Source: Bacteriovoracia bacterium
Lineage (GTDB): Bacteria; Bdellovibrionota; UBA1018; CAIPTA01
Reading direction: 5' to 3'
Length of the DNA stretch: 64,000 nt
NCBI GenBank assembly: GCA_050246755.1
Contig: JBFWVL010000001.1
Location: forward strand, 1,198,486 to 1,262,485
Below the pieces are notes generated by a model. It did not search any database and was not told the origin of the DNA. It saw nothing but the letters and a program-made list of their open reading frames with translations. Shown here in pieces: positions 36,761 through 59,879 of this stretch; positions within the stretch are counted from its first letter, which is position 1, and every line of letters begins with the position of its first letter. A program made the translations under genes and the position numbers.

Positions 36761-37116
36761 AAATTCTAGTGGTAGACGATGAAAAAATAATTTCTAGCAG
36801 CCTCCAGCGAGTGCTTACTCGCGCTGGCCACGAGGTAATGGTGGCAAATAACGGCGTAGAAGCATTGCGCATCATCTCCGAAAATAAAAAATTTGAAGTG
36901 GTTTTTCTGGATCTCCTGATGCCGGAAATCGGCGGCGCGGAAGTTCTGGATTTCGCGAAAAGAGCAATGCCCCAGGCTAAAGTATTGATGATGACGGCCT
37001 ACGGGGATCTATCGGTGAAAGAAGATCTAGTGGCCCGCGGCGCGCTCCGAGTGCTTGCCAAGCCCTTCGACGACATTACTTTAATTCCGCAAATGGTAAC
37101 AGAACTTGGGAATTAA
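36757..37116 (+). CDS. Single-domain response regulator (CheY-like receiver)
   Basis: ORF 36709..37116; start taken at ATG 36757 (ATGA overlap with kinase stop, GAGGA RBS); MKILVVDDE...VFLDLLMPEIGG...VLAKPF. Confidence 0.8.
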   Translation: MKILVVDDEKIISSSLQRVLTRAGHEVMVANNGVEALRIISENKKFEVVFLDLLMPEIGGAEVLDFAKRAMPQAKVLMMTAYGDLSVKEDLVARGALRVLAKPFDDITLIPQMVTELGN

Positions 37117-38639
37117 AAAATCGCGGCCTTTTTCACGGTGGCGATCAGCGCACCCGGAAACAAGCCATAGTTAATCGTGAGAAATATGCAAATCGCGATT
37201 GCCAGGTAGGCAAAGTTAGATTTGCGGAATACCAGACTGGGCTCAGTTCCCTCGCTCATATACATGAGCACCACGAGGCGCAGGTAGTAGTAAACGGATA
37301 CGGCGCTCGTGAGAACGGCGATCAATACCAGCAGGCCTTCACCCGCTTCGAGGGCGCCCGAGAACATATAGTATTTTCCCACGAAGCCCGCGGTCGGCGG
37401 AAAGCCTCCCAGACTGAGCAAGAAAATCGTCAGCGCCGCGGCCACCCAGGGGTGGCGTTTTGCAAGGCCGGCCAGGCCCTGCGTGGTGAGCGCGCCGTCG
37501 GCTTTGCCGGCGAAGAGCGACATCAGGGTGAAAGCCCCGATATTCATCGCCGAATAGGCCACTAGGTAGAAAATAATTCCCGAATATCCCACCCAGGGAC
37601 CCGCCAGTAGGCCCACCAGCAAATAGCCCGTGTGGGCAATCGCCGAATAGGCCATTAGCCGCTTTAGGTTCGTCTGCATTAGAGCCACGAAATTCCCGAT
37701 GAGCATGGTGGAAAGAGCAATCCACCAGAAGATCGTATGAATGAGATGAAATGCCTGCACGTGAGCGCCAATTCCATCCACCACCCCGTGTACCTGAGGC
37801 CCCCAAAAGGCATGCCCAACGCGAATCAGCGCTGCAAATACGGCGGCCTTCAAAGCGGTGGCCATATAGGAGGTAATGTTCGTAGGCGCGCCCTCGTATA
37901 CGTCGGGGGCCCACATGTGAAAAGGAGCAGCAGCAATTTTAAACAAGAACCCCACGAGCAAGAACACGAATCCCGCGATCAGCAGAGGATTCGAAAAGGC
38001 ATCGGGTTGGGCGGTAAGGGCCTTCGAAATATCCACGAGCTTCGTGGTATTCAGAGCACCGTAGATCAGCGCCATTCCGTAGAGATAAATCGCAGCGGAA
38101 GCGCCGCCCATCACGAAATATTTTACCGAGGCTTCATTGCTGAACGCATTCATGCGGCGCATGCCCACGAGCACATACACCATGAGGCTCATCAGCTCGA
38201 GCGCCACGAAAAGCATGAGGAGTTCTTCCGAGCAAGCCAGCAGCATCATACCGAGAGTGGAAGCGAGCAGGATCGGGTAAAATTCGGCGAAGTGGATCTC
38301 GCTTTCGTCGAGGTAGGAATAAGAGCCCATCATTACGAGTAAAGTGGCTCCACAGAGAAGCACATTAAAAAAAGACGAGAAGTAGTCGAGTACGATTGCG
38401 CCGCCAAATACGCGGATGGGCTCCTGCACCCAATGGAGTTCCGTCCAAACGATGGTCATCACGAGTGTAATCGCCGAAAAGATAAAAAGCGGAAGCTTCT
38501 TGCCCGGGCCTTCGCCGAAGTGGACGGTAGCCAAAAGCATCGAAAGCATAATTCCCAGCGTGAGAATTAGGTACGGGCCGAGCGCCATCCACTGGGCCGT
38601 GGAGAGCACCAAGTTTTGTGGATTAATTATAGTGAGCAT
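37113..38639 (-). CDS. nuoN: NADH-quinone oxidoreductase subunit N
   Basis: 508 aa polytopic protein; LFKIAAAPFHMWAPDVYEGAPT motif; last gene of the canonical operon. Confidence 0.9.
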   Translation of the reverse strand: MLTIINPQNLVLSTAQWMALGPYLILTLGIMLSMLLATVHFGEGPGKKLPLFIFSAITLVMTIVWTELHWVQEPIRVFGGAIVLDYFSSFFNVLLCGATLLVMMGSYSYLDESEIHFAEFYPILLASTLGMMLLACSEELLMLFVALELMSLMVYVLVGMRRMNAFSNEASVKYFVMGGASAAIYLYGMALIYGALNTTKLVDISKALTAQPDAFSNPLLIAGFVFLLVGFLFKIAAAPFHMWAPDVYEGAPTNITSYMATALKAAVFAALIRVGHAFWGPQVHGVVDGIGAHVQAFHLIHTIFWWIALSTMLIGNFVALMQTNLKRLMAYSAIAHTGYLLVGLLAGPWVGYSGIIFYLVAYSAMNIGAFTLMSLFAGKADGALTTQGLAGLAKRHPWVAAALTIFLLSLGGFPPTAGFVGKYYMFSGALEAGEGLLVLIAVLTSAVSVYYYLRLVVLMYMSEGTEPSLVFRKSNFAYLAIAICIFLTINYGLFPGALIATVKKAAIF

Positions 38640-40182
38640 CGGGAATAGCCTTTCTCAGCAGGGCGGTCTCTTCGGGTGTAGGCACCGAAATGCGCTTCGT
38701 GAATTCTTTTACGGAAGGTTCCATGTGCCGGAAGAAGGTCTTAGGAAAGAGCCCCATATAACCAATGAGGAAAATCAGCGGGAGAAGATAAGCAAACTCT
38801 CTCCAGTTGATATCCGTTAGGCCTTCCGATTTTTTCGCGTCCGGCACGCCGAAAAGAATACGCTGGGTGAGCCAAAGCATATAGACGGCACCGAAAATCA
38901 CCCCCGTAGCGGCCAGGGCCGTCCAGTAGGGGTGCGCGAGGAATCCACCCTGCAGAATGAGAAATTCGCCGATGAAACCATTCGTGCCCGGAAGCGCGAT
39001 CGAGCTGAAAGTTACTATGAGCCACACGATCGAAAAGAAAGGTAAAGTTTTGGCGAGACCGCTATACGCAATAATCTCGCGAGTATGTTTACGCTCGTAG
39101 AGAACACCTACCAAAAGGAAGAGCGCGCCGGTGGAAACGCCGTGATTCAGCATTTGATAGAGTGAGCCGGTGATCCCGATTTGATTTAGGGCGAAAAGAC
39201 CAAGAATCACGTAACCCATATGAGACACGGAGCTATACGCCACCAGCTTTTTGATATCGTCTTGCGCAATGGCCACAAAGGCACCATAAACGATCGCGAT
39301 CGCGGCAATACCCATCATCCAAGGAGCAACGATCGGCAAAATAGAAACCGAAAGCGGCATCGCGAAGCGCATGAGTCCGTAGCCGCCGAGCTTCAAGAGA
39401 ACGCCCGCTAGAATCACGGAACCTCCCGTTGGAGCCTGCACGTGGGCGTCCGGCAGCCAAGTATGCAGAGGGAAAAGCGGAACCTTGATTGCAAACGCCA
39501 AGGTAAAGGCCAGAAAGATCAGCCCTTGGGGGGTCATCATGTGTCCGCCGGCAAGCTGCAGCCTTAGAATATCTGGCAAGTAGGCCGAGTACCCGCCGAA
39601 CTGCGCCTTCGTTTGGAAAACTAAATAGATAATTGCCACCAGCATCGGCACGGAACCGGCGAAAGTGTAGAGCAGGAATTTCTGGGCCGCGTAGATCTTG
39701 TCTTTGCCGCCCCAGATTCCGATCAAGAAAAACATGGGAATCAACATCGCTTCCCAGAAAACGTAGAAGAGAAAAAGATCCAGCGCGAGGAAAGCGCCGA
39801 GGATGGTGCTTTCAAGCATCAGCATGAAGAAAAGGTATTTCTTGATGTCTTTCTCCACGGCGTGCCATGCGGACAGTACGATGATAGGAATCAAAAATGT
39901 CGTGAGTAAAATCAAATAGAGGCTGATGCCGTCGATACCCAGCGCGTAGCGAGCTCCGATCTGGGGGAGCCAGTCCATTTGCGAAACCATCTGCAAACCG
40001 GCGTTGCCTATGTCGAAGTTTTTATACATGCAAATTGAAAGGGCAAAAATCGCGGAGGAACCGATAAAAGCGACCCAGCGCACGGCCACTTCTAGCTTGG
40101 AAGGAATCAAAGCTACGATCACGGCCAGCAGGAGCGGGCTAAAGACCAAGCAAGAAAGAATATGTTCAGAAATGCCCTGCAT
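38623..40182 (-). CDS. nuoM: NADH-quinone oxidoreductase subunit M
   Basis: 519 aa; FAIKVPLFPLHTWLPDAHVQAPTGGSV motif. Confidence 0.9.
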   Translation of the reverse strand: MQGISEHILSCLVFSPLLLAVIVALIPSKLEVAVRWVAFIGSSAIFALSICMYKNFDIGNAGLQMVSQMDWLPQIGARYALGIDGISLYLILLTTFLIPIIVLSAWHAVEKDIKKYLFFMLMLESTILGAFLALDLFLFYVFWEAMLIPMFFLIGIWGGKDKIYAAQKFLLYTFAGSVPMLVAIIYLVFQTKAQFGGYSAYLPDILRLQLAGGHMMTPQGLIFLAFTLAFAIKVPLFPLHTWLPDAHVQAPTGGSVILAGVLLKLGGYGLMRFAMPLSVSILPIVAPWMMGIAAIAIVYGAFVAIAQDDIKKLVAYSSVSHMGYVILGLFALNQIGITGSLYQMLNHGVSTGALFLLVGVLYERKHTREIIAYSGLAKTLPFFSIVWLIVTFSSIALPGTNGFIGEFLILQGGFLAHPYWTALAATGVIFGAVYMLWLTQRILFGVPDAKKSEGLTDINWREFAYLLPLIFLIGYMGLFPKTFFRHMEPSVKEFTKRISVPTPEETALLRKAIPDAHYN

Positions 40183-40191
40183 GTAGCTCTC

Positions 40192-42132
40192 CTAGAAAAA
40201 GCGCACTACGGTTATCAGCAAAAACACCAGCATGCCCAGCATGAGCGCGGTGAGGTAATGTTCGAGCCGGCCCGTGTGCATCAAGCGCAAGGTGCGACCA
40301 GAAATTTTCGAAACTTTTGCGGTTAGCAGTACCGCCCCGTCGATTACCACCACGTCTACCATTTTCCAGAGAAAAACGGAGAAGGCGTGGATGGGACGAA
40401 CCACCAAAGCCTCGTAAAACTCATTGAGGTAGTAGCTATTGTAGAGAAAAGAAAACAGCGGGCCTTCTTCTCGGCTTTCCGGTTTCGAGAGGAACAGCGT
40501 TTTCGCGAGGAAAAGGCAACCCACTGCCACCACCACAGAAACCAGCATGAGCCCCCATTCCATGGCCAGAGTTCCGTGCCCCTGACTAGCCGGAACGATT
40601 CCCTCGAGCAAATGCTCTAGGTAATTCGGGATTGAGTGGCCGCCGAGAAAATGAGGCACGCTGAGAAACCCACCCAATGCCGCGAGCGCCGCAAGAATAA
40701 TCAGCGGAACCGTCATTAAGGGAGGAGATTCGTGCAAGTGGTGGCGCACCTCTTCGGTAGAGCGATTCTTGCCGAGGAAGGTCAAGCACACGAGACGCCC
40801 CATGTACGTGGCGGTGAGCCCCGCGGTAGCCAGCCCAACGATATAGAGAGGCAATCCACCGAGAGGGCTGGAGAAGGTCTGCCAGAGAATCTCATCTTTG
40901 GAGAAGAACCCCGAAAAAATCGGCACACCAGAAATCGCGAGAGTTCCCACCACGAAGGTCCAGTAAGTAATCGGCATATACTTCTGCAGGCCGCCCATCT
41001 TTCGCATGTCTTGCTCGCCGCCGCAGGCGTGAATCACCGAGCCCGAGCCGAGGAACATCAATGCTTTGAAAAAAGCGTGAGTCATAAGATGGAAAATCGC
41101 GGTGGTATACGCGCCCACGCCCACGGCGAGGAACATATAACCGAGCTGACTCACGGTGGAGTATGCGAGCACTTTCTTGATATCCGTCTGCACGATCGCG
41201 ATCGTCGCGGCCACGAACGCGGTCCCCACCCCGATCACCGCGATCACCGTCGAAGTAATCGGCGCGAGGCTGAATAGGAATCCTAGGCGGCAGCACATGT
41301 ATACCCCGGCCGTCACCATGGTAGCGGCGTGAATGAGAGCGGAAACGGGAGTAGGGCCGGCCATTGCATCGGGCAGCCAAACGAAGAGCGGAATCTGCGC
41401 CGATTTACCTGTAGCGCCCACGAAGAGCAAAAGGGTAATTACGGTTAGGATGCCGAAACCCACTTCCACCGAAAGACTTCCCATTGCCTCTTTCAGCTCC
41501 ACAAAGTCGAGAGTGCTGAAATGCATGAAAATTAGGAACATGCCGAGGAGGAATCCAAGGTCTCCGATACGGTTCACTACAAAAGCTTTTTTTCCGGCCT
41601 TCGCCTTTTCGATATCTTCGAACCAGAAACCAATTAGGAGGTAAGAGCAAAGCCCCACGCCTTCCCAGCCAATGAAGAGAATGGGCAGACTCGCGCCCAA
41701 GATGAGGATGAGCATCGAGGCCGTGAACATATTGAGGTAGGTGAAATAGCGGGCGGGATTCTCGTCCTCATGCATGTAGGCGATCGAATAAATGTGAATT
41801 AGGCAACCAACGCCGCTCACTACGAGGGAAAGCACGCCGGAGAGCGCGTCCACGCGGAAACGCATCGGAATATTGAAGTTCGCCACTTCGATCCAAGAAA
41901 ATGCCGTTTGCTCGAAGGCGGAGGAAACGCCCTCCTTGCCGGTGAGACGGAGATAGAGCGACACAGCCAATGCAAAGCTGCCGAAAACGCAGCCACTGGC
42001 GATCACGCCGGCCAAATCGCCAGGAATTCGCGGGATTTTTTTCCAGGGTATAGCCCCGAACAATCCGTTAATCGTGGCGCCGATAAGCGGCAGCAGGACA
42101 ATCCAACCTAAGAGACTTGTTTGTTCGGTCAT
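40192..42132 (-). CDS. nuoL: NADH-quinone oxidoreductase subunit L
   Basis: 646 aa; IPLFVWLPDAMAGPTPVSALIHAATMVTAGVYM motif and long C-terminal extension. Confidence 0.9.
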   Translation of the reverse strand: MTEQTSLLGWIVLLPLIGATINGLFGAIPWKKIPRIPGDLAGVIASGCVFGSFALAVSLYLRLTGKEGVSSAFEQTAFSWIEVANFNIPMRFRVDALSGVLSLVVSGVGCLIHIYSIAYMHEDENPARYFTYLNMFTASMLILILGASLPILFIGWEGVGLCSYLLIGFWFEDIEKAKAGKKAFVVNRIGDLGFLLGMFLIFMHFSTLDFVELKEAMGSLSVEVGFGILTVITLLLFVGATGKSAQIPLFVWLPDAMAGPTPVSALIHAATMVTAGVYMCCRLGFLFSLAPITSTVIAVIGVGTAFVAATIAIVQTDIKKVLAYSTVSQLGYMFLAVGVGAYTTAIFHLMTHAFFKALMFLGSGSVIHACGGEQDMRKMGGLQKYMPITYWTFVVGTLAISGVPIFSGFFSKDEILWQTFSSPLGGLPLYIVGLATAGLTATYMGRLVCLTFLGKNRSTEEVRHHLHESPPLMTVPLIILAALAALGGFLSVPHFLGGHSIPNYLEHLLEGIVPASQGHGTLAMEWGLMLVSVVVAVGCLFLAKTLFLSKPESREEGPLFSFLYNSYYLNEFYEALVVRPIHAFSVFLWKMVDVVVIDGAVLLTAKVSKISGRTLRLMHTGRLEHYLTALMLGMLVFLLITVVRFF

Positions 42133-42142
42133 GACGAAATCC

Positions 42143-42460
42143 TTATTGCTTCATCTGGTTCAGCTGCGCGGTGCCCACTTCACGTAAGTTCCGATAGAGC
42201 GCAATTAAGAGGCCTAATCCGATCGCGCCCTCGGCGGCGGCCACGGTCACGATAAAAAACACCATGAGCTGGCCGTTCATATCTTGATTTAAGCGGGAAA
42301 AGGTCACGAGGGTGAGGTTCACGGCCGTGAGCATTAGCTCGATGCACATTAAAACCGCGATGAGGGAGCGGCGAAGCATAATGCCCGTAAGCCCAATCGC
42401 AAACAAGGCCGCGCCCGTTATTAGCGCTGGAAAAATCATGGGGTCCGCTAAGTGATGCAT
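42143..42460 (-). CDS. nuoK: NADH-quinone oxidoreductase subunit K
   Basis: 105 aa, three helices, conserved Glu in CIELMLTAVN and VAAAEGAIGL. Confidence 0.85.
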   Translation of the reverse strand: MHHLADPMIFPALITGAALFAIGLTGIMLRRSLIAVLMCIELMLTAVNLTLVTFSRLNQDMNGQLMVFFIVTVAAAEGAIGLGLLIALYRNLREVGTAQLNQMKQ

Positions 42461-42999
42461 CAGTCCACCCTTCTTTTTGCCAGAACCACGCAGCCCACTA
42501 CCGCGATGGAAAGCAGCATGCCCACCGTGAGGAAGGGCATTACGTAATCCGAAAACATAATTTCCGAAACCACTCTCACGTTTCCACCGTTCTCGGCCAC
42601 GGCCGCCGAGGTGAATGGGCCTTTATTCGCGGCGGGAATCGACTTCATAAAAATAATCGTCATCAACGCGCAGAATCCCACCGCAATCGCGATCGGTACC
42701 GGCCAAAAACCTCTGTTCGTAGGCCAATCGATTTCCACCTGCTCCACGCTGAGAAGCATGATCACGAACACGAAGAGCACCATGATCGCGCCGGCATAAA
42801 CAAGAACTTGCACCGCGGAAACGAAATAGGCTTCCTGCATGGCGAATACTCCCGCCACATTCAGCAATACGGAGATCAGCGAGAAAGCACTCGATACTGG
42901 ATTCTTCAATGCGATCACGCCGATGGCGGAGAGCACGGCCAAGCCGCAAAAAAGATAAAAAAGAATTTGTGGGAGTAGATCCTGAAAAAATTCGTTCAT
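42460..42999 (-). CDS. nuoJ: NADH-quinone oxidoreductase subunit J
   Basis: 179 aa membrane protein in conserved position between nuoI and nuoK. Confidence 0.8.
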   Translation of the reverse strand: MNEFFQDLLPQILFYLFCGLAVLSAIGVIALKNPVSSAFSLISVLLNVAGVFAMQEAYFVSAVQVLVYAGAIMVLFVFVIMLLSVEQVEIDWPTNRGFWPVPIAIAVGFCALMTIIFMKSIPAANKGPFTSAAVAENGGNVRVVSEIMFSDYVMPFLTVGMLLSIAVVGCVVLAKRRVD

Positions 43000-43439
43000 T
43001 TCTTCGCCCTTTGAATCAAGAGATAATCTTTGTCATACACGCGGCGCTCGTAGTCGGCCATTTCGTAAATATTCGAAAGCTTAATGGCGTCCTTCGGGCA
43101 GGCTTCTTCACAAAAACCGCAAAAGCAGCAGCGTAAGATATCGATTTCGAATTTCACGGGATACTTCTCTTTATTGGCGCGCTCGCCGGCTTCAATGTGA
43201 ATGCAATCGGCGGGGCAAATCGTGGGGCAAAGCATGCAGGCCGTGCAGTTCTCCACGCCATTTACGGTTTTGATGTAATGCTGGCCACGGTAACGCGGAG
43301 AATAACTACGGCGCTCCTCGGGATATTGGTACGTGATGTTTTTTCCGAAAAACCAGAACTTCATCGTGATCAGAAGCCCTTTGAAGAGCTCGATCAAGTA
43401 GAAGCGCTGCAGAAATCCATGTTCGCGTTTAATCAGCAT
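42996..43439 (-). CDS. nuoI: NADH-quinone oxidoreductase subunit I (2x[4Fe-4S])
   Basis: 147 aa; two CxxCxxCxxxCP motifs (CTACMLCPTICP, CCFCGFCEEACP). Confidence 0.9.
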   Translation of the reverse strand: MLIKREHGFLQRFYLIELFKGLLITMKFWFFGKNITYQYPEERRSYSPRYRGQHYIKTVNGVENCTACMLCPTICPADCIHIEAGERANKEKYPVKFEIDILRCCFCGFCEEACPKDAIKLSNIYEMADYERRVYDKDYLLIQRAKK

Positions 43440-43448
43440 AAATTTTCC

Positions 43449-44552
43449 TTAATGCCCGTACATTACGGCGATCGAAACCGCCGTTGCTAGAATATTAATG
43501 AGAGCCAAGGGGACCAAAACTTTCCATCCCAGCCACATCAGCTGATCGTAGCGGAAGCGCGGAAGCGTAAAGCGAACCACGATGAAGAAAAGCATAAAGA
43601 GGATTACTTTTAGCCAGAACGTAAGCACTTGGCCGATCACCACCGCCCAATAGAGCATTTGGTCGGTGAGATGGAAATGGCTCAGGAGCGCGTGCAGGCC
43701 GGGGGCTTGCCAGCCGCCAAGAAAAAATGTCGCCACTAACCCGGAGGCGGTGATCATATGCGCGTACTCGGCCATGAAAAACAGCGACCACTTCATGCCG
43801 CCGTACTCCAGGTGATATCCGGCCACGATCTCGGCTTCCCCCTCGGGAAGGTCGAAGGGCAGACGGTTGGTTTCGGCGAAAGCGGCCACGATAAAAATCA
43901 ATGCGGCGAGAGGCTGATGAAAGATTCCCCAGTTCGGCAGAAAGCTAATCTGCTGGCCGAAGATCATCAGGGGGCCGCCCTGACTAACGGCCATCTCCAT
44001 TAAGTCTACCGTATTGTAGTTCATGATGATGGCCACAAGGCTCATCCCCATCGCGAGCTCGTAGCTGATCATTTGGGCCGTGGAGCGAAGTCCGCCGAGC
44101 ATGGAATATTTATTATTAGAAGCCCACGAAGCCACGATGATTCCATATACGGCAAGCGAAGATATCGAAGTGATGTATACGAAGCCCACGTTCATCGAAG
44201 AAAGCTGCAGGGAAATGATCGTTCCATTTACGTCGATCACCGGACCGAAAGGAACCACGGCGAAGGTCATGAAAGCGGGAACTACGCAAATTCCGGGAGC
44301 CAACAAGTAGTACCACTTGCGCACGTGACCGGGCACTAGGTCTTCCTTGAAGATAAACTTCACGGCATCGGCGATCGATTGCAGAAGGCCGAATGGGCCC
44401 ACGCGGTTCGGTCCGGTTCGATTCTGCATCCAGGAACAGATTCGGCGTTCGGCCCACGCCATTAACGGCGCCACGTGCAGGAGCACTAAAAGCACCATCG
44501 CGAGCTTTCCCACCATCGCTATCAATAAAATATTCGGAACGGTCATTTCCAC
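43449..44552 (-). CDS. nuoH: NADH-quinone oxidoreductase subunit H
   Basis: 367 aa; RTGPNRVGPFGLLQSIADAVKF and LPRFRYDQLMWLGWK motifs. Confidence 0.9.
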   Translation of the reverse strand: MEMTVPNILLIAMVGKLAMVLLVLLHVAPLMAWAERRICSWMQNRTGPNRVGPFGLLQSIADAVKFIFKEDLVPGHVRKWYYLLAPGICVVPAFMTFAVVPFGPVIDVNGTIISLQLSSMNVGFVYITSISSLAVYGIIVASWASNNKYSMLGGLRSTAQMISYELAMGMSLVAIIMNYNTVDLMEMAVSQGGPLMIFGQQISFLPNWGIFHQPLAALIFIVAAFAETNRLPFDLPEGEAEIVAGYHLEYGGMKWSLFFMAEYAHMITASGLVATFFLGGWQAPGLHALLSHFHLTDQMLYWAVVIGQVLTFWLKVILFMLFFIVVRFTLPRFRYDQLMWLGWKVLVPLALINILATAVSIAVMYGH

Positions 44553-44555
44553 GAC

Positions 44556-45974
44556 TTAACTCACTTTCCGCGACGATTCGATCAACGCGCCGATCAGGCT
44601 CGCGAGGGGCCGGCTCATGCCGATCGGCTGCGTAACGGCCTGGAAGGTTTGCTGCATTCCCTGATAATTCACGAAAGTTCCGGCTTTTTCGTACGTCGAG
44701 AGACCGGGCAATACGAATTGGTAACCGAGAAGCTCTTCCTTCAAAAACAACCCGATCGCCACCGCTTTTTTCGCTTTCTTCGCCAGCCCGTAAGGGGGGC
44801 GCACTTTGCCCGCGCTCACGAAGAAGCAAAGGTCGAATTTCGCCGGATCGAATTCCGCCGAAGCCTTAAATCCCACGGCTTCGAGTCCCTTCAAATTAGG
44901 AGATTTATCTTTACGGCGCAGCAAGTGATCGAGCGGCTTATCTTCTGAGCTCGAATTCACGGTTGGGCTATAGGAAAAATAGGCGGCGTTTGGAAATGCT
45001 TTCTTCAGCGCATGAGCTTCTTCTTGCGTGGCATCAGCGCACACGAAGAAAGCAATCGACTTGGCGCCATCCATCATTTCTTTTACGGCGGGAAGCGCTT
45101 CGTTCCACATCATGCCCTTAGGATTTCCGCCACGGAGATCCGTAGGCCCCAGTACGCGAGAGGGAGTGTGCACGTGGTGAAAGCCGTAACGGCCTTCATC
45201 GCACATCCACCACTTATTCACTTCCATATTCACGCGCGGCTCCAGACGGAAAACCACGCCGGAATCCTGCGAACCAAGAATATTACAGCCCTGCGCACAG
45301 CCGTCGCATACGCTTTCGGCCGTTTTGAGATACCACACGCGCTTTTTGAAGCGGAAATCCTTGGTGGTGAGAGAGCCCACAGGGCAAACATCAGCCAGCC
45401 CGCCGGCATAAGCAGTTTGCAGGGGCTTATCATCGATCGTGATGATCTCAGTGCTGTTTCCGCGCTGCTCGGCGATCATTTCGTGGATACCACCCACTTC
45501 GTCGCAATAGCGGATGCAGCGGGTGCAGTGAATGCAACGATTCATATTCTTCTTGATCGAAGGGCCCATATCCACATCGATAAAGGTACGGCGGAAAAAC
45601 TGGTTCCGGGTGTCTTCGGCGCCGTGGTTATAGCTATACTCCTGAAGGCTGCATTCTCCGGCCTGATCGCAAATCGGGCAATCGAGCGGATGGTTAGCGA
45701 GCAAAAATTCCTGCACGCCACCCACAGATTTTTTTACTTTTTCGGAAGTGGTGGAAATTTTCATTCCATCGGCGCAGGGCGTGGAACAAGCGGTCACCAG
45801 TTTCTTCTGGCCCTCCACTTCCACCAAGCACATTCGGCACTGTGCCACGATCGAAAGACCGTCGTGGTAGCAATAGCGGGGAATATGATTGTTTTTGGCA
45901 CGGTCGGTAGCCTGGATGATCTTCTCACCCGGCTTAAACTCTACCTGCACTCCGTCGACTATAATGTTCGGCAT
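44556..45974 (-). CDS. nuoG: NADH-quinone oxidoreductase subunit G (compact form)
   Basis: 472 aa; N-terminal 2Fe-2S and 4Fe-4S cysteine motifs (CRMCLVEVEG, CPICDQAGEC, CIHCTRCIRYC); shorter than typical NuoG. Confidence 0.85.
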   Translation of the reverse strand: MPNIIVDGVQVEFKPGEKIIQATDRAKNNHIPRYCYHDGLSIVAQCRMCLVEVEGQKKLVTACSTPCADGMKISTTSEKVKKSVGGVQEFLLANHPLDCPICDQAGECSLQEYSYNHGAEDTRNQFFRRTFIDVDMGPSIKKNMNRCIHCTRCIRYCDEVGGIHEMIAEQRGNSTEIITIDDKPLQTAYAGGLADVCPVGSLTTKDFRFKKRVWYLKTAESVCDGCAQGCNILGSQDSGVVFRLEPRVNMEVNKWWMCDEGRYGFHHVHTPSRVLGPTDLRGGNPKGMMWNEALPAVKEMMDGAKSIAFFVCADATQEEAHALKKAFPNAAYFSYSPTVNSSSEDKPLDHLLRRKDKSPNLKGLEAVGFKASAEFDPAKFDLCFFVSAGKVRPPYGLAKKAKKAVAIGLFLKEELLGYQFVLPGLSTYEKAGTFVNYQGMQQTFQAVTQPIGMSRPLASLIGALIESSRKVS

Positions 45975-45988
45975 TTTATTCCTTTAAT

Positions 45989-47278
45989 CTAGTGGCTATA
46001 GCTCGAGCTTCCAAAAGGGCAACGCTTCTCGTTCACGTGTTGCTCGTATTCGGTTCGGAATTTTTTCACCATTGAACGCAACGGCCAGGCAGTGGCTTCG
46101 CCGAATGCACAGATCGTGGTTCCGTCCATGTTATTGCAAATGTCTTCGATCAGATCGAGGTCGCCAATATTCCCCTCGCCCCGCTCGAGGCGCAGGTGAA
46201 GATCTTTGAGCCACATGGAGCCCTCGCGGCAAGGTGTACATTGTCCGCAGCTTTCCACTTGGTAAAAATGCGCGGTGCGGATCGCCACCTTGAGAATACA
46301 AGTAGCGTCGTCTATTACCATAATGCCGGCCGAGCCGAGCATGGAACCAGCCTTCGCCAAAGAATCAAAATCCAGGTTCACACTGCATTCTTCGGCCGTG
46401 AGCACCGGCGAGGAGGATCCGCCGGGAAAAGCCGCCTTCAGCTTCCGGCCCTTCCAAATTCCCCCACAATCTTCGTTGATCAACTGCATGAGAGGGTAAC
46501 CGAGGGGACGCTCGTATAGGCCAGGACGGTTTACGTGTCCAGAAATACAGAACAGCTTCATGCCGTGATTGCGCTCGGGACCGAACTGCTTGAACCAGGC
46601 GGCGCCGCGATTAATGATCATCGGAATGCAGGCTAAGGTTTCCACGTTATTCACTACCGTGGGGCAACCGAACAAACCGATAGCGGCCGGGAAAAAAGGA
46701 GGCTTGATTCGCGGTTCGCCCCGCTTTCCCTCGAGGGAATTCAGGAGCGCGGTTTCTTCTCCGCAAATATACGCGCCGGCCCCGCGATGCACGATCATGT
46801 CGAGCTGGTATCCCGTGCCGTTCACGTTTTTTCCAAGCAAACCGGCCTTATAGGCTTCTTCGATCGCTTTATCGAGGATCTTTGCCTCCTTCACGTATTC
46901 ACCGCGGATATAGCAGTAAATCATATGAGCATTGATCGCCATCGCGGCGATGATGGCACCTTCGATCATGAGATGAGGCTGGTAAGCCATGATCGCGCGA
47001 TCCTTAAAAGTGCCGGGCTCAGATTCGTCGGCGTTGATCACGAGATACTTCGGTTTATCTGAATTCTTCGGAATGAATCCCCATTTCGTGCCGCAAGGAA
47101 ATCCGGCGCCCCCGCGCCCGCGAAGGCCGCTTTCCTTTACCTCGGCCAAAACTTTTTCTGGCCCCATTTCCACGGCCTTCGGAAGAGCCGTATAACCCGA
47201 TTCATTCTTTTTATAGGCGTCGAGGCCTTCCACACCGGCCTGGCCGTAATATTTAGAGAATACGATTTCCTGCTGCAT
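45989..47278 (-). CDS. nuoF: NADH-quinone oxidoreductase subunit F (FMN/NADH-binding)
   Basis: 429 aa; GRGGAGFPCGTKW, GAGAYICGEETALLNSLEG, ESCGQCTPCREG. Confidence 0.92.
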   Translation of the reverse strand: MQQEIVFSKYYGQAGVEGLDAYKKNESGYTALPKAVEMGPEKVLAEVKESGLRGRGGAGFPCGTKWGFIPKNSDKPKYLVINADESEPGTFKDRAIMAYQPHLMIEGAIIAAMAINAHMIYCYIRGEYVKEAKILDKAIEEAYKAGLLGKNVNGTGYQLDMIVHRGAGAYICGEETALLNSLEGKRGEPRIKPPFFPAAIGLFGCPTVVNNVETLACIPMIINRGAAWFKQFGPERNHGMKLFCISGHVNRPGLYERPLGYPLMQLINEDCGGIWKGRKLKAAFPGGSSSPVLTAEECSVNLDFDSLAKAGSMLGSAGIMVIDDATCILKVAIRTAHFYQVESCGQCTPCREGSMWLKDLHLRLERGEGNIGDLDLIEDICNNMDGTTICAFGEATAWPLRSMVKKFRTEYEQHVNEKRCPFGSSSYSH

Positions 47279-47751
47279 TAGCGGAACTCCTCAAGCACTT
47301 TATCGAGCTGTTTCTCATCGAAATTCTCGTGGTAGTCGTCGTTGATCTGGCAAACCGGCGCCGTGCCGCAAGATCCGAGGCACTCCACTTCGGAAATAGT
47401 GAACATTCCATCCTTGGTGGTACCACCCAGAGAAACACCGCACTTCTTTTCCGCGCGGTGAATGAGGTCTTCGGAGCCGCGCAGCCAGCATGCGATGTTA
47501 TTGCAAAACTGGAGGTTATACTTGCCCACCGGCTTGGTGTGGAACATGTGATAAAACGTAACCACTTCTTTCACCCGCGTTTTCGGAATCGCGAGAAAAT
47601 CGGCCACATCTTGCATCGTATCGTCGGAGATCCAGCCGCGGTCTTTTTGGGCCGCATGCAGAGCCGGTAAGAGCATGGCTAGCTTATTGGGATACATTCC
47701 TTGAATGCGGTCCATCTCGGCGTAAAATTCGTTTCCAAATTTCTTTTCCAT
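47278..47751 (-). CDS. nuoE: NADH-quinone oxidoreductase subunit E (2Fe-2S)
   Basis: 157 aa; CNNIACW...CLGSCGTAPV thioredoxin-like 2Fe-2S motif. Confidence 0.9.
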   Translation of the reverse strand: MEKKFGNEFYAEMDRIQGMYPNKLAMLLPALHAAQKDRGWISDDTMQDVADFLAIPKTRVKEVVTFYHMFHTKPVGKYNLQFCNNIACWLRGSEDLIHRAEKKCGVSLGGTTKDGMFTISEVECLGSCGTAPVCQINDDYHENFDEKQLDKVLEEFR

Positions 47752-47752
47752 A

Positions 47753-48994
47753 TTAGCGGTCTAACTCCCCGGCAATAATATTCACGGAACCAATCACGGC
47801 GATCACGTCGCCCACGTTTTCACCCTTCACCATCTCGTCTACGGGCTGGAACATGAAGAAAGAGGGGGCGCGGATACGCAAGCGGTAGGCCTTGGGACCG
47901 CCGCGGCTGATCGCGTAGAAGCCCATTTCGCCATTTGGGCCCTCCATAGGGCAGTACGCTTCTCCTGGAGGAACATCGAAACCTTCCATGAAAAATTTGA
48001 AATGGTGGATCAAGGACTCCATCGAATTATAAACGCGTTCCTTTTCCGGAATCTTCACGCGTTTATCGTCGGCCCAGATTGGGCCTTTGGGCATTTTCTG
48101 CGCGATCTGGCGGAGCATGCGGATGGATTCGAAAATTTCCGCCATACGCACCAGATAGCGATCGTACACGTCGCCGCCCTTTGCCACCGGAACGTCGAAC
48201 TCCAGCTCGCGGTACGCAAGATAAGGGCGGTCCCTGCGTAGGTCGATATTTACGTTGGAAGCGCGGAGGCAAGGGCCCGTCATCGAGTAAGCGAGTGCCT
48301 GTTCGGCGGTGAAAACGCCCACACCGCGGGTACGATCCACCCAGATACGGTTGTTCGTGAGCAGCTTGTCGAGCTCCTTAAAACATCTTTCGGTTTCATC
48401 AAGCCAAGCGTTCAGACGGGGAATGAAGCCATCGGGCAAATCACCAGAAAGACCGCCCACGCGGGTATAGGTGGTGGTCAACCGTGACCCACAGAGACTT
48501 TCGATCAAACTATAAGCTTCTTCGCGCTGGTGGAATCCGATGAGAAAGTAGGTCATGGCGCCAAGGTCGAAGGCATTGATGCCCACGCAAATGATATGAT
48601 CAATGATCCGCGCCATTTCGCAAACCATCGTGCGAATCCACACGTTGCGCGGAGGAATCTCGATGCCCATGAGCTTCTCGATCGTGGTCACGTAGGCCAC
48701 GTTATTCTGCAGGGCCGAACAATAATTCAGGCGGTCCGTATAGGGAATAAACTTATGGTAGGTTTTCACCTCGCCGAGCTTTTCCATCCCGCGATGCAAA
48801 TAACCGATCTCACATTTGCTCTCCTCCACCACTTCGCCGTTGAGCCGGCAAACGATACGAAGCGTTCCGTGGGTCGCCGGATGCTGGGGACCGATATTGA
48901 TAAGCATCTGCGAACTCTCGAAGATATCGCCATTATCGTCGTCTTCGAAGGCATCGCCTTTTCTAGGGAGCTGGAGTCCGGTTAGTTTATCCAT
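47753..48994 (-). CDS. nuoD: NADH-quinone oxidoreductase subunit D
   Basis: 413 aa; NIGPQHPATHGTLRIV, IGYLHRGMEKL, YTDRLNY, C-terminal GSVNIIAGELDR. Confidence 0.92.
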   Translation of the reverse strand: MDKLTGLQLPRKGDAFEDDDNGDIFESSQMLINIGPQHPATHGTLRIVCRLNGEVVEESKCEIGYLHRGMEKLGEVKTYHKFIPYTDRLNYCSALQNNVAYVTTIEKLMGIEIPPRNVWIRTMVCEMARIIDHIICVGINAFDLGAMTYFLIGFHQREEAYSLIESLCGSRLTTTYTRVGGLSGDLPDGFIPRLNAWLDETERCFKELDKLLTNNRIWVDRTRGVGVFTAEQALAYSMTGPCLRASNVNIDLRRDRPYLAYRELEFDVPVAKGGDVYDRYLVRMAEIFESIRMLRQIAQKMPKGPIWADDKRVKIPEKERVYNSMESLIHHFKFFMEGFDVPPGEAYCPMEGPNGEMGFYAISRGGPKAYRLRIRAPSFFMFQPVDEMVKGENVGDVIAVIGSVNIIAGELDR

Positions 48995-49647
48995 TATTCA
49001 CGCTCCAATACGGTCTTGGCCGAGCCTGGAGAGCCGATTGTTTTTTCTTTACGCAGCTCGTGCCGCGACATTCTCTCCGCCGATGGATCAAGACCGAAGC
49101 TATCGGTGGATGCCGATCCCTCGAAGCGCTGGTAGCGCTTAATGGGATAGTCCTTACGCTGGGGATGCCCCACCCAGCGCTCGTCGAGCAGAATGCGGTG
49201 CAGGTGGGGATGGCCCGAAAATCTCACGCCGTACATATCGAACACCTCGCGCTCCAGCCAATTGGCGGCCCTCCAGATGCCCACCACCGAGGGAGTTTCT
49301 TCTTCTTCTCTCACCCGCACCTTAATACGGATGCGGTCGTGGTTCTGCAGGGAAAAAAGCTGGTACACCACCACGAAGCGGTGCGCCCCGCCGGGGTTCT
49401 TCAAAGTGCCGAGGCCGTAGTCCGCGATCTTATCCAGCGGAGGATTATCATCGTAAGCGGTGAGATCAGAAAGGAAGCTGTACTCGAGGCCCTCTTCCGT
49501 GCGGATCGACTGCAAAAATTCTACGATTTTTTCTTTGCGCACGAAAAAAATAGGATCATCGGTATTTTCCGATACTACTTCCTCAATGGCATCGCCGTAA
49601 CGGGCTTTGATCCTGTCGATTTTTTCCTTCGGAAAATCCATCTTCAT
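48994..49647 (-). CDS. nuoC: NADH-quinone oxidoreductase subunit C
   Basis: 217 aa; [24 protein letters not shown] signature. Confidence 0.9.
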
Positions 49648-50126
49648 TGCAGCATCGCCTTACTTTTTTTAATTTTTTCCTGGAGCCGCATCACGCCGTG
49701 AATCACGCCCTCAGGAGAGGGCGGGCAGCCGGGAATATAGATGTCCACCGGAATTACTTCATCCGCACCCTGCATAACACTGTAGGTATCGAAAATGCCG
49801 CCGGAAGAAGAACAAGCGCCCATTGCGATCACCCACTTAGGATCGGCCATTTGCTCATAGAGAGTCTTGAGCACGGGGCCCATCTTCTCCGTGATCGTGC
49901 CGGCGATGATCATCATATCGCTCTGACGAGGAGAAAAGCGCACCACCTCGGCGCCGAAACGCGCAAGATCGTAGTCGGCCGAAAGCGTGGCCATCATCTC
50001 GATTCCGCAGCAGCTCGTACCGAAAGGATAGGGCCAGAGAGAGTTGGCTCTCGCCCAATTTACAAAATCTTCCAGTCTAGTAGTTAAAACATCCGGTGCG
50101 CCGTCTTTTGGCATATCGCCCCCCAT
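49644..50126 (-). CDS. nuoB: NADH-quinone oxidoreductase subunit B (N2 cluster)
   Basis: 160 aa; [23 protein letters not shown] cysteine motifs. Confidence 0.92.
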
Positions 50127-50151
50127 TCAGGCCGCTTCTGCGGCCCAGAAA

Positions 50152-50514
50152 CTATTCCCACTCGAGCCCGCCGCGGCGCCATTCGTATAAAAAGGCCACG
50201 GTAATCATGGTCATGAAAAATAGCATTACGCCGAGGATGAAAAAGTTCACCCCGAGAAATTTCCGGTACGCGAGGGCCCACGGAAAGAGCAGGGCTACCT
50301 CCACATCGAATAATAGAAAAGAAAGTGCCACGAGATAGAAGCGAACCGAAAAACGCTTTCTCGCGTCTCCACTAGGAGGTACGCCGCATTCGTATACGGA
50401 ATTTTTGAATTTATTAGGTCGCTTTGGTCCCAAGAGAGCCGCGCCGAAAATTACGGCGAACGAGATGCCTAACCCCACGAGAAACAAAAGCAAAACCGGA
50501 AAATACCCGGACAT
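50152..50514 (-). CDS. nuoA: NADH-quinone oxidoreductase subunit A
   Basis: 120 aa; YECG motif and FDVEVALLFPW; AGGGGG-type RBS upstream of the ATG. Confidence 0.88.
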   Translation of the reverse strand: MSGYFPVLLLFLVGLGISFAVIFGAALLGPKRPNKFKNSVYECGVPPSGDARKRFSVRFYLVALSFLLFDVEVALLFPWALAYRKFLGVNFFILGVMLFFMTMITVAFLYEWRRGGLEWE

Positions 50515-50556: not shown

Positions 50557-52011
50557 TTATTTAAGAAAGACTTTTGCAGTTTCGAAAAGTAAGGCAAATA
50601 CCCGATGCCAAAGGAATCCAAGCGCGGCGAGAGCAACGATTGCGACGGCTAACGAGAGCCACTCCAACGCGCCGTACCGAAACAGAACAAGAGGCGCAGT
50701 GTTTGTCGACGACGAAGCGCGTTGGCGGAATAGTAAATCCGTTCCCACGCGAATGGAAATTAGCGAAAGGGTGGCCACCAGCAGTACTTCGGCCGCGAGG
50801 AAAAATAGGGATTTCTGTTCCATCATCGCCGCCAAAAGATTCAATGCCATGGGAAATCCAGGTAAACCAGGAATGCAAAGCGGGCTGGCGAGCGCCAATA
50901 ATAGCAATAACCCCGAAGAGCGAAACGTGCGCGCGGCACCGTAGACATCTTTTAAATTTTCGCCGCCGGCACTTTCTTGAAATCGTCCCCAGTTAAAACC
51001 CAAAAGACTGGTCCAAACAAAAACCGAGGCAAAAGCATAGGTAATGGAGGATGCACTAAGTACGGTCGGCAATGCACCGGCCACTAAAATGGCCGACCAC
51101 TGCGCGCCCACTAGGGCACTGAAAAGACGCTTTGAATTTTCCTGCGTGAGCGCCACTAGGGCCAGCCAAAAGCCACCGCTAAGCCCACAGAGCTGTAACG
51201 TGCGCAGTCCCTCGGAAACTTCCCCGGGCCGAGCCTTGCCAAAAACCTCCACTCCCATTTTCCACAAAGCGAGGGTAACCGTTCCCTGCCAGATCACGGA
51301 AAGGGTTACCACTACCGGCCAGGGCATTCCTTGGTCGCGATCCACGTGCGCAAAGTGAAATGGAAAGAGTCCGGCGGCCATCACGAAGGGCAGGCAAAGC
51401 GCAAACACCACGAGAAGCGCGCTGAGGGAATAAATCGATTGCGCGTGAAGAAAAGAAGAGATCACATCATAGTGAACGCCGCCGGCGACCACGGCCAGAG
51501 CCGTAGCCGCGCCAAACCCACCCGCCATTACCAGAGAAGCTTGAATCCAGTACTTCAAGACGGCTTCCCCTTCACCGCGACCCCGAAACGCCAGGCCGCC
51601 GAGGAAAAGAGATAACCACGATCCGCAAACCAGAAGGATAATCGAAAGGGTCATCTGTCGGGAAAGCAGCAAGAGATCACAAAGCATTACCAGCGTGGAA
51701 AGCAGGAAAAGAACTTCGTGTTTTCTTTTTGCGGGTAACTCTTTGGTGGCCACAACGCCGCGCCCCAGGAGAAGGGCCGCCACGAAAAGAGCCGCACGCG
51801 GCAAACGGAAAAGCGGTTGATCTTCCAGAAGCCCGAACCAGATTTGGGACTGATCGGCCGATTGGCCCACGGCCAAGGTTGCCATTGCCGCCAAAAATCC
51901 GAGGCTTGAAAGAAATTCAATCGCCGTGCGCGAGCGAGAACTGCGGTTAAAAAGCAGCGCCACTCCTTGCGCTAGCGTGGCTAATCCGACGACTAAAATC
52001 GATAAGGGCAT
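50557..52011 (-). CDS. Divergent complex I antiporter-like membrane subunit (NuoN-like)
   Basis: 484 aa polytopic protein; EAVLKYWIQASLVMAGGFGA and GLFPFHFAHVDRDQGMP align by eye with nuoN EASVKYFVMGGASAAIYLYG and AAPFHMWAPDVYEGAP, but charged residues differ. Confidence 0.65.
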   Translation of the reverse strand: MPLSILVVGLATLAQGVALLFNRSSRSRTAIEFLSSLGFLAAMATLAVGQSADQSQIWFGLLEDQPLFRLPRAALFVAALLLGRGVVATKELPAKRKHEVLFLLSTLVMLCDLLLLSRQMTLSIILLVCGSWLSLFLGGLAFRGRGEGEAVLKYWIQASLVMAGGFGAATALAVVAGGVHYDVISSFLHAQSIYSLSALLVVFALCLPFVMAAGLFPFHFAHVDRDQGMPWPVVVTLSVIWQGTVTLALWKMGVEVFGKARPGEVSEGLRTLQLCGLSGGFWLALVALTQENSKRLFSALVGAQWSAILVAGALPTVLSASSITYAFASVFVWTSLLGFNWGRFQESAGGENLKDVYGAARTFRSSGLLLLLALASPLCIPGLPGFPMALNLLAAMMEQKSLFFLAAEVLLVATLSLISIRVGTDLLFRQRASSSTNTAPLVLFRYGALEWLSLAVAIVALAALGFLWHRVFALLFETAKVFLK

Positions 52012-52023
52012 GCCGACCTCAAA

Positions 52024-53478
52024 CTAATTGCCATTTAATCCTTTCAGCAGGGCCGCCACCGATACTCCCATGGGCCCCAGAAGCAGGCTCGGCAAAACCC
52101 CTAAAACCAAAAGCACCAGACCAAGCGGTGCAATCGCAAGAATCTCTTCCCAAACCAAGTCGTGAAACTCTCCGCGATCTCCATCACCGGCCCCGGCGTC
52201 GAGACGAAAAAACATAATGCTCATCCCAGCAAAAGCAACCACCGGAACTGCTAGCGTAACCACGAGCAGCGGCCAGCTATGCACCCCGCTCAGCGACCAA
52301 ATAACGAAAAGTACCCCGTAGAATCCAATGGAAACCGGCAGAAAGAGCGCAAAAAGGGAGGCCGCCGCCGTGCTGAGCGCAAAGGCAGGAAATTCACGGA
52401 TTCTTTGGAGCGGTAAGGGGAATTTTCTTCTCTCGTGACAAGCAAGCACGAAGAGCATGAACGGAATAGAGAGCGTTTGGAAAAATAGGAGAATAAGAGA
52501 GCCGTGCCACCCTTTGGGATTTAAATTGAACAAGCCGATGGCGATGAACGAGCAAACGGTCTGCTGCAACCAAAATACGCGATCGCGCGCCTGGCGTGCG
52601 CCGAGAAAATTCAGCGCACAGTAAAGGGCGCCGATGGAGAAAAAGGCCAGAAGGTAATGGCCGAACCGCAAAAGCTCGCCGGGAAAAAGCTCCACCACGA
52701 AACGAGAGAGCAAAGTAAATCCCAGAAGCGGCTGCAGCGCTAGCGGCACCGCTTTTTCTACGGATTCCATTTCGAATATCCGGCGGGTGCTGCCGTGAAA
52801 GGGAAATATTCCGGCGCCGATCCCGAATGCCAGCAGCAATAATCCAAAGCCGATCGACCCCGGCAGTACCATATAGGTATCGCCCGATAGTCGGAACCAC
52901 TCCCCGATGGAACCACGGAATCCCTCCGAGAACGCCAGCACGCAAAGCAATAACGACAATGAAGCGATGGTAGAGAGAAAAGCCGCCTCGCGTACCGGCT
53001 CAATGCGATTTTCCTTTGCGTCTACCCCGGAAAATATAAATCGGGGGAGTAATGCGCCGGCAAAGAAAACAGAGAAAAGCAAAAGGTGATCAGCGCCTAG
53101 GGCACCGAGCACACAAGTCAAGTAGGCGGAAAGGCTGGCTACCGAGGCGCGGGATTTCTCGAGCATTCCCCTCGCCAGAAAGTGATAGCAAACGGTTACG
53201 GAAGAGACCGCTAGCGCCAATATTCCCGAATGAAATACCCAGCGGAGGCCCGTGTGATTCGACCAAGCGCTCTGGGCGAGAATCGCCGGAGAAAGCACGC
53301 TTCCGGCGTATTCGTTGGGCGAATAGAAGCCGATGGCCAAAAACAGAAAACAAACCCAAGAGAGAAGGTGCACCAACAACGAAAATGCCCAGAGCTTCTT
53401 CCCGCGCACGGGACCGCAAGCCGCCACCGTGACGAGCAGAGGCAAAAACGTAGCGATTAGTCCCGCCCAGCCTTTCAC
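52024..53478 (-). CDS. Divergent complex I antiporter-like membrane subunit (NuoM-like)
   Basis: ORF 52024..53520; start possibly GTG 53478 overlapping the upstream stop (GTGA). GIGAGIFPFHGSTRRIF aligns with nuoM AIKVPLFPLHTWLPDAH; polytopic. Confidence 0.6.
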   Translation of the reverse strand: MKGWAGLIATFLPLLVTVAACGPVRGKKLWAFSLLVHLLSWVCFLFLAIGFYSPNEYAGSVLSPAILAQSAWSNHTGLRWVFHSGILALAVSSVTVCYHFLARGMLEKSRASVASLSAYLTCVLGALGADHLLLFSVFFAGALLPRFIFSGVDAKENRIEPVREAAFLSTIASLSLLLCVLAFSEGFRGSIGEWFRLSGDTYMVLPGSIGFGLLLLAFGIGAGIFPFHGSTRRIFEMESVEKAVPLALQPLLGFTLLSRFVVELFPGELLRFGHYLLAFFSIGALYCALNFLGARQARDRVFWLQQTVCSFIAIGLFNLNPKGWHGSLILLFFQTLSIPFMLFVLACHERRKFPLPLQRIREFPAFALSTAAASLFALFLPVSIGFYGVLFVIWSLSGVHSWPLLVVTLAVPVVAFAGMSIMFFRLDAGAGDGDRGEFHDLVWEEILAIAPLGLVLLVLGVLPSLLLGPMGVSVAALLKGLNGN

Positions 53479-56563: not shown

Positions 56564-56578
56564 CCGTTAAAACTCCAG

Positions 56579-56899
56579 CTAATGCCGCAAACTATCTTCT
56601 TCATCCACATCCAGCGTTCCGCGAAATCGGCTACAGCGGTGCAATACCAGCAGACCCACCGCCACGAGCGCGGGAACCATTCCCAATGCCACTAACGAGA
56701 GCACGATGAGATCTCCGCCGCCGGAAGAAAAATATTGCGAGAATAAAAATCCACATGCCACCACGGCCTTAAGTGCGGTGGCCTGACCCACCAGCCCCCA
56801 TGCCGCCACCCGGCGCAGCGCGATGGCCGAAAGGCCCGCCACAAATACGGCCAAGAGCAAGATCACGTTAATTTTGTTTGCCACCGAGGTTAAATCCAT
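56579..56899 (-). CDS. Divergent NuoK-like small membrane subunit
   Basis: Track ORF 56579..57289 overlaps the NuoJ-like gene in another frame; start taken at ATG 56899 (MDLTSVANKINVILLLAVFVAG...), giving 106 aa with three hydrophobic helices at the NuoK position. Confidence 0.55.
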   Translation of the reverse strand: MDLTSVANKINVILLLAVFVAGLSAIALRRVAAWGLVGQATALKAVVACGFLFSQYFSSGGGDLIVLSLVALGMVPALVAVGLLVLHRCSRFRGTLDVDEEDSLRH

Positions 56900-59868: not shown

Positions 59869-59879
59869 AGGAGTATAAT

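Follow-up and report, generated by a model that had tools for sequence, protein, structure and literature searches.

The subject of this analysis is the nuoG gene carried by a stretch of DNA of 64,000 nucleotides (nt) from a Bacteriovoracia bacterium (contig JBFWVL010000001.1, positions 1,198,486 to 1,262,485), referred to here, at its full length, as the window. The product of this gene, a protein of 472 amino acids (aa), is very probably a genuine and functional NuoG (of the Nqo3/NDUFS1 type) of the 14-subunit NADH:quinone oxidoreductase, or complex I, in a naturally compact form, as judged from its sequence and from a predicted model. Five observations carry this reading: the domain architecture of the protein, the conservation of its cluster ligands, the position of its gene in the operon, its conservation across the lineage and its structural superposition on solved subunits.

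The open reading frame (ORF) of nuoG is intact, with 472 codons, an ATG start, a TAA stop and a ribosome-binding site of the AAGGA type upstream. It comes seventh in an operon of closely spaced genes that runs from nuoA to nuoN, with nuoF before it and nuoH after it, and this 14-gene context bears out the initial annotation, which had placed the gene in the canonical operon; the position between nuoF and nuoH is found here and in all 80 of the related loci described below. The intergenic gaps within the operon range from -17 to +25 nt, that between nuoF and nuoG being 14 nt and that between the stop codon of nuoG and nuoH 3 nt, and because the gaps around nuoG are so small there is no space for a lost exon-like piece or for a frameshifted continuation. 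The closest protein in the databases, labelled Bdellovibrionota, is also 472 aa long and is 93% identical.

The iron-sulfur domains of the N-terminal part are retained, as had been claimed from the sequence at the outset: the Pfam domains and the ligands of clusters N1b, N5 and N4 are all present, and the N7 site is kept too. The ligands of N1b are C35, C46, C49 and C63; those of N5 (HxxxCxxCxxxxxC) are H95, C99, C102 and C108; and those of N4 (CxxCxxC...CP) are C147, C150, C153 and C197. The N7-type set (CxxCxxxC and a distal cysteine), formed by C223, C226, C230 and C258, places the protein in the N7 subgroup, and it has the same spacing as the N7 cysteines of E. coli, which in the work of Pohl et al. 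of 2007 are reportedly C228, C231, C235 and C263. All four ligand sets are invariant in the alignments of 35 Bdellovibrionota homologues and of 149 compact homologues. Among the more distant representatives that were checked, the N5 and N4 sites are kept in all those of at least 460 aa except P0265 (which has HCGC at N5), and the N7 positions read CCCC in every one of compact length (471-605 aa). The N7 cysteines are absent from the long form P0251 (788 aa), the sole full-length sequence of this kind, and from the 414-aa fragment P0237.

The part of the protein that follows the iron-sulfur domains is where the deficit lies. In the solved 75-kDa subunits, the counterpart of residues 4-303 (3-325 with a profile) is the stretch of the first 330 residues or so. 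Residues 420-468 fall at about 551-600 of some 690 residues, and in human NDUFS1 (687 aa) residues 421-468 align to about 551-598, so that some 95 residues of the window NuoG stand for about 220 of NDUFS1, whose last 90 or so residues are without counterpart. It follows from these alignments that the window NuoG is approximately 230-430 aa shorter than the characterised NuoG, Nqo3 and NDUFS1 proteins, and that the deficit is in the molybdopterin-like part. The alignment with full-length NuoG and Nqo3 proteins that had been recommended as a check was carried out (L-INS-i, eight long NuoGs of 707-875 aa), and it locates the loss both inside the protein and at its C-terminus: the long forms have a contiguous block of 133-172 aa that is missing after residue ~358, a further 16-36 aa are missing after residue 375, and the C-terminal part (123-166 aa) found in six of the eight is missing as well. 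This C-terminal part corresponds to Pfam Molydop_binding in all three that were scanned of the six long forms having it.

The Pfam matches describe the same loss. Residues 421-466 of the window NuoG match only profile positions 307-352 of the 353 of the Molybdopterin family (PF00384), that is, its last 46 positions, and the protein has no Pfam match to Molydop_binding (PF01568); the complete molybdopterin-like C-terminal region (all of PF00384 together with PF01568 or an equivalent domain) is therefore lacking. The single alpha/beta domain that is retained consists of the first (residues 271-358) and last (residues 359-466) segments of the Pfam Molybdopterin region and, given that both ends of this region are kept, the loss is, as the alignments are read here, an internal domain excision combined with a terminal loss rather than a plain C-terminal truncation. 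The initial annotation was thus right that the protein is much shorter than the usual 75-kDa subunit (472 aa against 707-875 aa in the long forms) and that part of the molybdopterin-like domain is missing, and it needs refining in that an internal block is gone as well as the C-terminal domain. The fold of molybdopterin oxidoreductases has two alpha/beta domains, of which one is assembled from two flanking segments and the other is a contiguous insert between them. By analogy, the equivalent of ‘domain II’ would be kept in the window NuoG and the equivalents of ‘domain III’ and ‘domain IV’ (D, the C-terminal barrel) would have been excised.

Exactly at the junction left by the excision there is a conserved charged loop (Table 1), which in Bdellovibrionota follows the pattern D-x3-D-x-[IL]L[RK]R-x-[DSN]K[ST]-[PSA]-NL-x-G-x-E. 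A looser form of it, D..L.R.D(K).PN..G, is found in the consensus of the compact proteins of other phyla.

An AlphaFold2 model of the window NuoG, built from an alignment of 149 sequences, has a mean predicted local distance difference test score (pLDDT) of 95.1 and a predicted template modelling score (pTM) of 0.90, and in it residues 271-466 form one alpha/beta domain with pLDDT values of about 97-98. This model supersedes an earlier run with 35 sequences, in which the iron-sulfur region was poorly modelled (pLDDT of 72.8, query-normalised template modelling (TM) score of ~0.45). In a Foldseek search of the PDB, the top matches are all 75-kDa, NuoG or Nqo3 chains of complex I, with E-values down to 1e-43, and the predicted fold can be superposed on the solved Nqo3, NuoG and NDUFS1 structures. 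The query-normalised TM scores are 0.85-0.88 (0.86 for T. thermophilus 4hea_3, 0.86 for E. coli 7z7r_G and 0.88 for Arabidopsis 8bed_G), and the target-normalised scores only 0.45-0.63; low values of the latter together with high values of the former imply that the model is a rigid sub-structure of the canonical subunit. In the predicted model, then, the iron-sulfur domain and the retained alpha/beta domain hold their usual relative positions. The sequence leads to the same solved chains, with E-values of 1e-77 for the single sequence and 3e-105 for a profile.

The short form is not peculiar to one genome. The 120 best database matches are 462-493 aa long, save for one entry of 379 aa that covers just 80% of the query, and the sources named among them are Bdellovibrionota, Oligoflexia, Bacteriovoracia and Bdellovibrionales. 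When one genome of each GTDB species was scanned, 145 relatives were obtained, of which the best 80 loci (45-81% identity) were analysed; almost all of these are labelled as Bdellovibrionota lineages, Bdellovibrio sp. among them. In every one of the 80 the ORF of NuoG is 462-498 aa long and the gene order is nuoE-F-G-H-I. The mean column identity is 70-85% in the iron-sulfur part and 51-56% in the retained C-terminal domain, with invariant residues in both, and this degree of conservation of the C-terminal domain, together with its invariant residues, indicates that it is under selection. The suggestion that the short form may be a lineage trait has therefore held up, in length and in operon position alike, and the trait extends beyond the lineage. 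It had also been said beforehand that a short form uniform in related taxa would make the protein unremarkable; such uniformity is what was found, and the compact NuoG is accordingly to be seen as ordinary.

These data bear directly on the idea that nuoG is what truncation or a frameshift has left of a full-length gene (a pseudogene), or else an artefact of the assembly. A length of about 60% of that of the characterised NuoGs and a score under the NCBIfam cut-off are what this idea would lead one to expect, but its probability is close to nil: the frame is intact and closely flanked by nuoF (14 nt) and nuoH (3 nt), ORFs of 462-498 aa are present in 80 independent species-level assemblies, the block that is absent is internal and in frame, and a conserved motif marks its junction, and the C-terminal domain is conserved and modelled at a pLDDT of ~97-98. 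The conservation in 80 species and the in-frame junction led to its rejection.

It could also be argued that the protein does not belong to complex I at all, and that it is a HoxU-, HydA- or FdhA-like iron-sulfur module of a different enzyme linked to NAD(H), for instance a hydrogenase or a formate dehydrogenase diaphorase, given that its N-terminal domain also matches the models of HoxU, [FeFe]-hydrogenase and formate dehydrogenase. Against this, the gene is part of a complete nuoA-N operon, flanked by nuoF and nuoH, with the same order in all 80 related loci, the best matches in both sequence and structure are 75-kDa, NuoG and Nqo3 chains of complex I, and the Pfam scan reveals neither a hydrogenase H-cluster domain nor a catalytic molybdopterin domain. 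This possibility is regarded as extremely improbable, and it was rejected on account of the operon position and the best structural matches.

How far the compact NuoG extends beyond Bdellovibrionota was assessed with HMMER by searching 1.84 billion cluster representatives (50% identity) exhaustively, and the best 150 matches were considered. Among these there are 132 compact proteins (471-605 aa, median 533), nine of at least 700 aa and nine fragments. The compact representatives are 36-43% identical to the window NuoG and align over the whole query, and the compact forms have a common junction without insertion, the D..L.R.D(K).PN..G loop and all four ligand sets. Their named sources include Rokubacteria/Methylomirabilota/NC10, Binatia, Armatimonadetes, Caldithrix, Limnocylindrales, Chlamydiae, Kryptonium, Omnitrophica, Nitrospinota, Bacteroidetes, Terriglobales (Acidobacteriota) and Casimicrobiaceae. 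The class can be defined operationally by a length of ~470-605 aa, no insert at the junction (query residues 350-362), the same loop and no Molydop_binding domain, and the window NuoG has all of these properties. Compact NuoG is thus an ordinary and widespread form, and the NuoG of Bdellovibrionota belongs to the compact class. Most members of the class from other phyla have an extra C-terminal tail (~40-55 aa in six compared by L-INS-i) and loops of ~10 aa after residues 239 and 375, all of which the Bdellovibrionota form lacks; on these alignments, it is at the short end of the class. As a test of whether the compact forms are monophyletic, a simple comparison of identity does not discriminate, the shared N-terminal 270 residues being 45% identical to compact and to long forms alike. 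A database protein of 1405 aa (P0124), apparently a large fusion, has a NuoG-like region at residues 851-1164 (32% identity, in four matched stretches).

Another proposal is that the gene is split, with the missing domains encoded by a separate ORF and assembled in trans. A precedent exists in Euglena, whose NDUFS1 is divided (PDB 8iuf chain 1A is the 385-aa NDUFS1a), but for the window NuoG we consider this very unlikely. The check for a separate ORF that the initial annotation had asked for came back empty: the C-terminal parts of eight long NuoGs, searched with tblastn against the 64-kb window and the 80 related loci, gave no significant match other than the tail of nuoG itself. Moreover, the segments that flank the missing block are both present in the polypeptide, which means that the block was excised rather than the chain broken and makes a split gene unlikely in principle, and the junction is common to hundreds of compact NuoGs from many phyla. 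The proposal was rejected on these grounds, the empty tblastn search of the window and the 80 loci and the excision architecture.

Several points weigh against the reading of the protein as a functional compact NuoG. It scores under the cut-off of the NCBIfam NuoG equivalog model (TIGR01973; 403.7 bits against 470.05) and matches profile positions 1-328 of 606, a shortfall that is explained by the shortened architecture and not by a different ancestry. No solved chain aligns continuously past about residue 338, and the assignment of domains II, III and IV, which is made at the level of sequence, draws on Pfam profile coordinates and on general knowledge of the molybdoenzyme fold. The search for a piece encoded in trans covered 64 kb of this genome. 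Lastly, no compensating extension or extra subunit was found when the neighbouring subunits of the peripheral arm, themselves minimal (NuoE of 157 aa, NuoI of 147 aa and NuoC of 217 aa), were compared with solved homologues. A solved structure with this architecture was not encountered in the searches made, and literature searches in a limited collection yielded no description of a compact NuoG or of the Bdellovibrionota form, and only general context (PMC3144371, PMC4758237, PMC8762328, PMC9474812).

If the protein works as proposed, NuoG would bind clusters N1b, N5 and N4 and relay electrons from the flavin/N3 site of NuoF to NuoI, the route known from all complexes I so far characterised, and the small Fe4S4 subdomain would bind the off-pathway cluster N7, which the literature calls a relic, too far away to take part in electron transfer (PMC9474812). 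Of the cofactor-less scaffold that resembles a molybdopterin enzyme, one alpha/beta domain is all that is kept; this domain is probably the part that contacts the rest of the peripheral arm, and the lost domains may be a dispensable outer scaffold. The bacterial NDUFS1 has been divided into domains A-D, with D absent in eukaryotes, and it has been proposed that D, or NDUFA2 in eukaryotes, acts as a brace of the B/C interface (PMC8762328). With one of B and C gone, nothing is left for D to brace, so that the joint loss of that domain and of D would be plausible. A tentative extension, which we consider less likely than not, is that a 14-subunit complex I can work without two of the four domains of NuoG (the middle alpha/beta domain and the C-terminal barrel) and that the junction loop DxxxDxLLRRKDKSPNLKG has become a new structural or inter-subunit contact.

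Compatible with a functional compact NuoG is the idea that it needs an accessory protein, specific to the lineage, that replaces the lost domains in the way that NDUFA2 stands in for domain D. The means by which NDUFS1 is stabilised are indeed various (NDUFS4 and NDUFA2 in eukaryotes, Nqo15/16 in Thermus, loops in E. coli; PMC8762328), and the lack of compensating extensions in NuoE, NuoC and NuoI is in keeping with this idea. We nevertheless judge it unlikely: the operon has exactly 14 genes and no spare ORF, no candidate was identified, and with one alpha/beta domain absent there is no inter-domain interface to brace.

It is known that the size of the cofactor-less C-terminal region of NuoG varies widely among lineages. 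The compact NuoG is one more, rather extreme, natural minimisation, and its direct significance is small. It can, however, be regarded as a natural deletion experiment, one which suggests that one alpha/beta domain and the N7 subdomain suffice to hold the iron-sulfur relay of complex I, and it could guide the engineering of minimal enzymes or the choice of targets for cryo-electron microscopy. There is also a consequence for annotation. In the NCBI records of metagenome-assembled genomes, compact NuoGs are named ‘2Fe-2S iron-sulfur cluster-binding protein’, ‘(2Fe-2S)-binding protein’ or ‘molybdopterin-dependent oxidoreductase’, and given such generic names and a score below threshold, strict profile-based pipelines could wrongly call complex I incomplete. 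Compact NuoG may therefore be systematically missed, or named generically, in metabolic reconstructions of uncultured phyla. According to a 2026 preprint, none of 176 Omnitrophota genomes has nuoG (K00336); there are, however, compact NuoG-like proteins that carry the label Omnitrophica/Omnitrophota (P0463, P0482), and the reported absence may be an annotation blind spot.

The window also contains a second, highly divergent complex-I-like cluster (50557-61137, minus strand), which is found immediately upstream of the canonical nuo operon, in the same orientation (Table 1); no NuoE, NuoF or NuoG was found in it. In 25 of the 80 related loci there is a tblastn match to the window NuoN just upstream of nuoA, so that part of the phylum may likewise have an extra antiporter-like gene or cluster kept in tandem. 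On the other side of the operon, just downstream of nuoN and convergent with it, there is a gene for a sensor histidine kinase of 654 aa (HisKA, HATPase_c and a weak PAS match; 34796-36760, plus strand).

Table 1. Features of the window discussed in the text, with positions counted from its first nucleotide and residues numbered in the window NuoG.
Feature	Positions	Strand	Remarks
nuoABCDEFGHIJKLMN, canonical operon	37113..50514	minus	14 genes; Pfam assignments for nuoA-I
nuoF	45989-47278	minus	neighbour preceding nuoG
nuoG (compact NuoG)	44556..45974	minus	472 aa and stop codon; Pfam, NCBIfam and solved-chain matches
2Fe-2S domain, residues 1-80	45735..45974	minus	Pfam Fer2_4, residues 4-77, E 9.5e-18
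N5 region, residues 81-135	45570..45734	minus	Pfam NADH-G_4Fe-4S_3, residues 87-123, E 3.8e-15
Ferredoxin-like N4 domain, residues 136-215	45330..45569	minus	Pfam Fer4_Nqo3, residues 137-203, E 4.5e-22
Molybdopterin-type Fe4S4 subdomain, residues 216-270	45165..45329	minus	Pfam Fer4_NDSU1 / Molybdop_Fe4S4, residues 217-269
Single retained alpha/beta domain, residues 271-466	44577..45164	minus	AlphaFold model; Pfam Molybdopterin; long-form alignment
Conserved charged loop DKPLDHLLRRKDKSPNLKGLE, residues 345-365	44880..44942	minus	alignments; spans the insertion point of the 133-172-aa block
nuoH	43449-44552	minus	neighbour following nuoG
NuoB-like	60269-60718	minus	42% identity, N2 cysteines present
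NuoD-like	58792-59967	minus	
NuoH-like	57860-58795	minus	
NuoI-like	57390-57911	minus	
NuoK-like	within 56579-57289	minus	
Large membrane ORF, 582 aa	54815-56563	minus	no Pfam/NCBIfam match
Large membrane ORF, 447 aa	53475-54818	minus	no Pfam/NCBIfam match
Weak NuoM-like	52024-53520	minus	
Weak NuoN-like	50557-52011	minus	

Among the known systems with which the window NuoG can be compared, HoxU and the N-terminus of the [FeFe]-hydrogenase HydA have a homologous module of one 2Fe-2S and two 4Fe-4S clusters (NCBIfam HoxU, E-value of 3e-41, residues 5-205). These proteins end after the iron-sulfur module or diverge, whereas the window NuoG continues with the N7 subdomain and a molybdopterin-type alpha/beta domain and is encoded in a nuo operon. 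The split NDUFS1 of Euglena (NDUFS1a, 385 aa, PDB 8iuf) resembles it in being naturally short and in bearing the iron-sulfur part. In Euglena a second polypeptide supplies the remainder, whereas in the window NuoG the domains are deleted, with no second ORF found in the window or in the 80 loci.

The Nqo3 of T. thermophilus (783 aa) and the NuoG of E. coli (908 aa) share with the window NuoG the operon position, the N1b, N5 and N4 ligands and the N7-type set; the sequence match covers residues 1-325 of the window NuoG, and the query-normalised TM score is 0.86 with each. Both have the middle alpha/beta domain and the C-terminal domain of the Molydop_binding type that the window NuoG is missing, and the insertions specific to E. 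coli are not found in it either; the target-normalised TM scores are 0.46-0.55 for Nqo3 and E. coli NuoG. The best matches are the mitochondrial NDUFS1 and, from the Alphaproteobacteria, the NuoG of Paracoccus (674 aa), both in sequence (E-values of 1e-77 and, with a profile, 3e-105) and in structure (query-normalised TM of 0.85-0.88). Subunits of the NDUFS1 type are, like the window NuoG, without a full domain D (PMC8762328). The two differ in what else was given up: NDUFS1 retains B and C, the two alpha/beta domains, but no longer has the N7 cysteines, whereas the window NuoG has kept N7 and a single alpha/beta domain, with about 95 residues in the place of NDUFS1 residues ~330-550.

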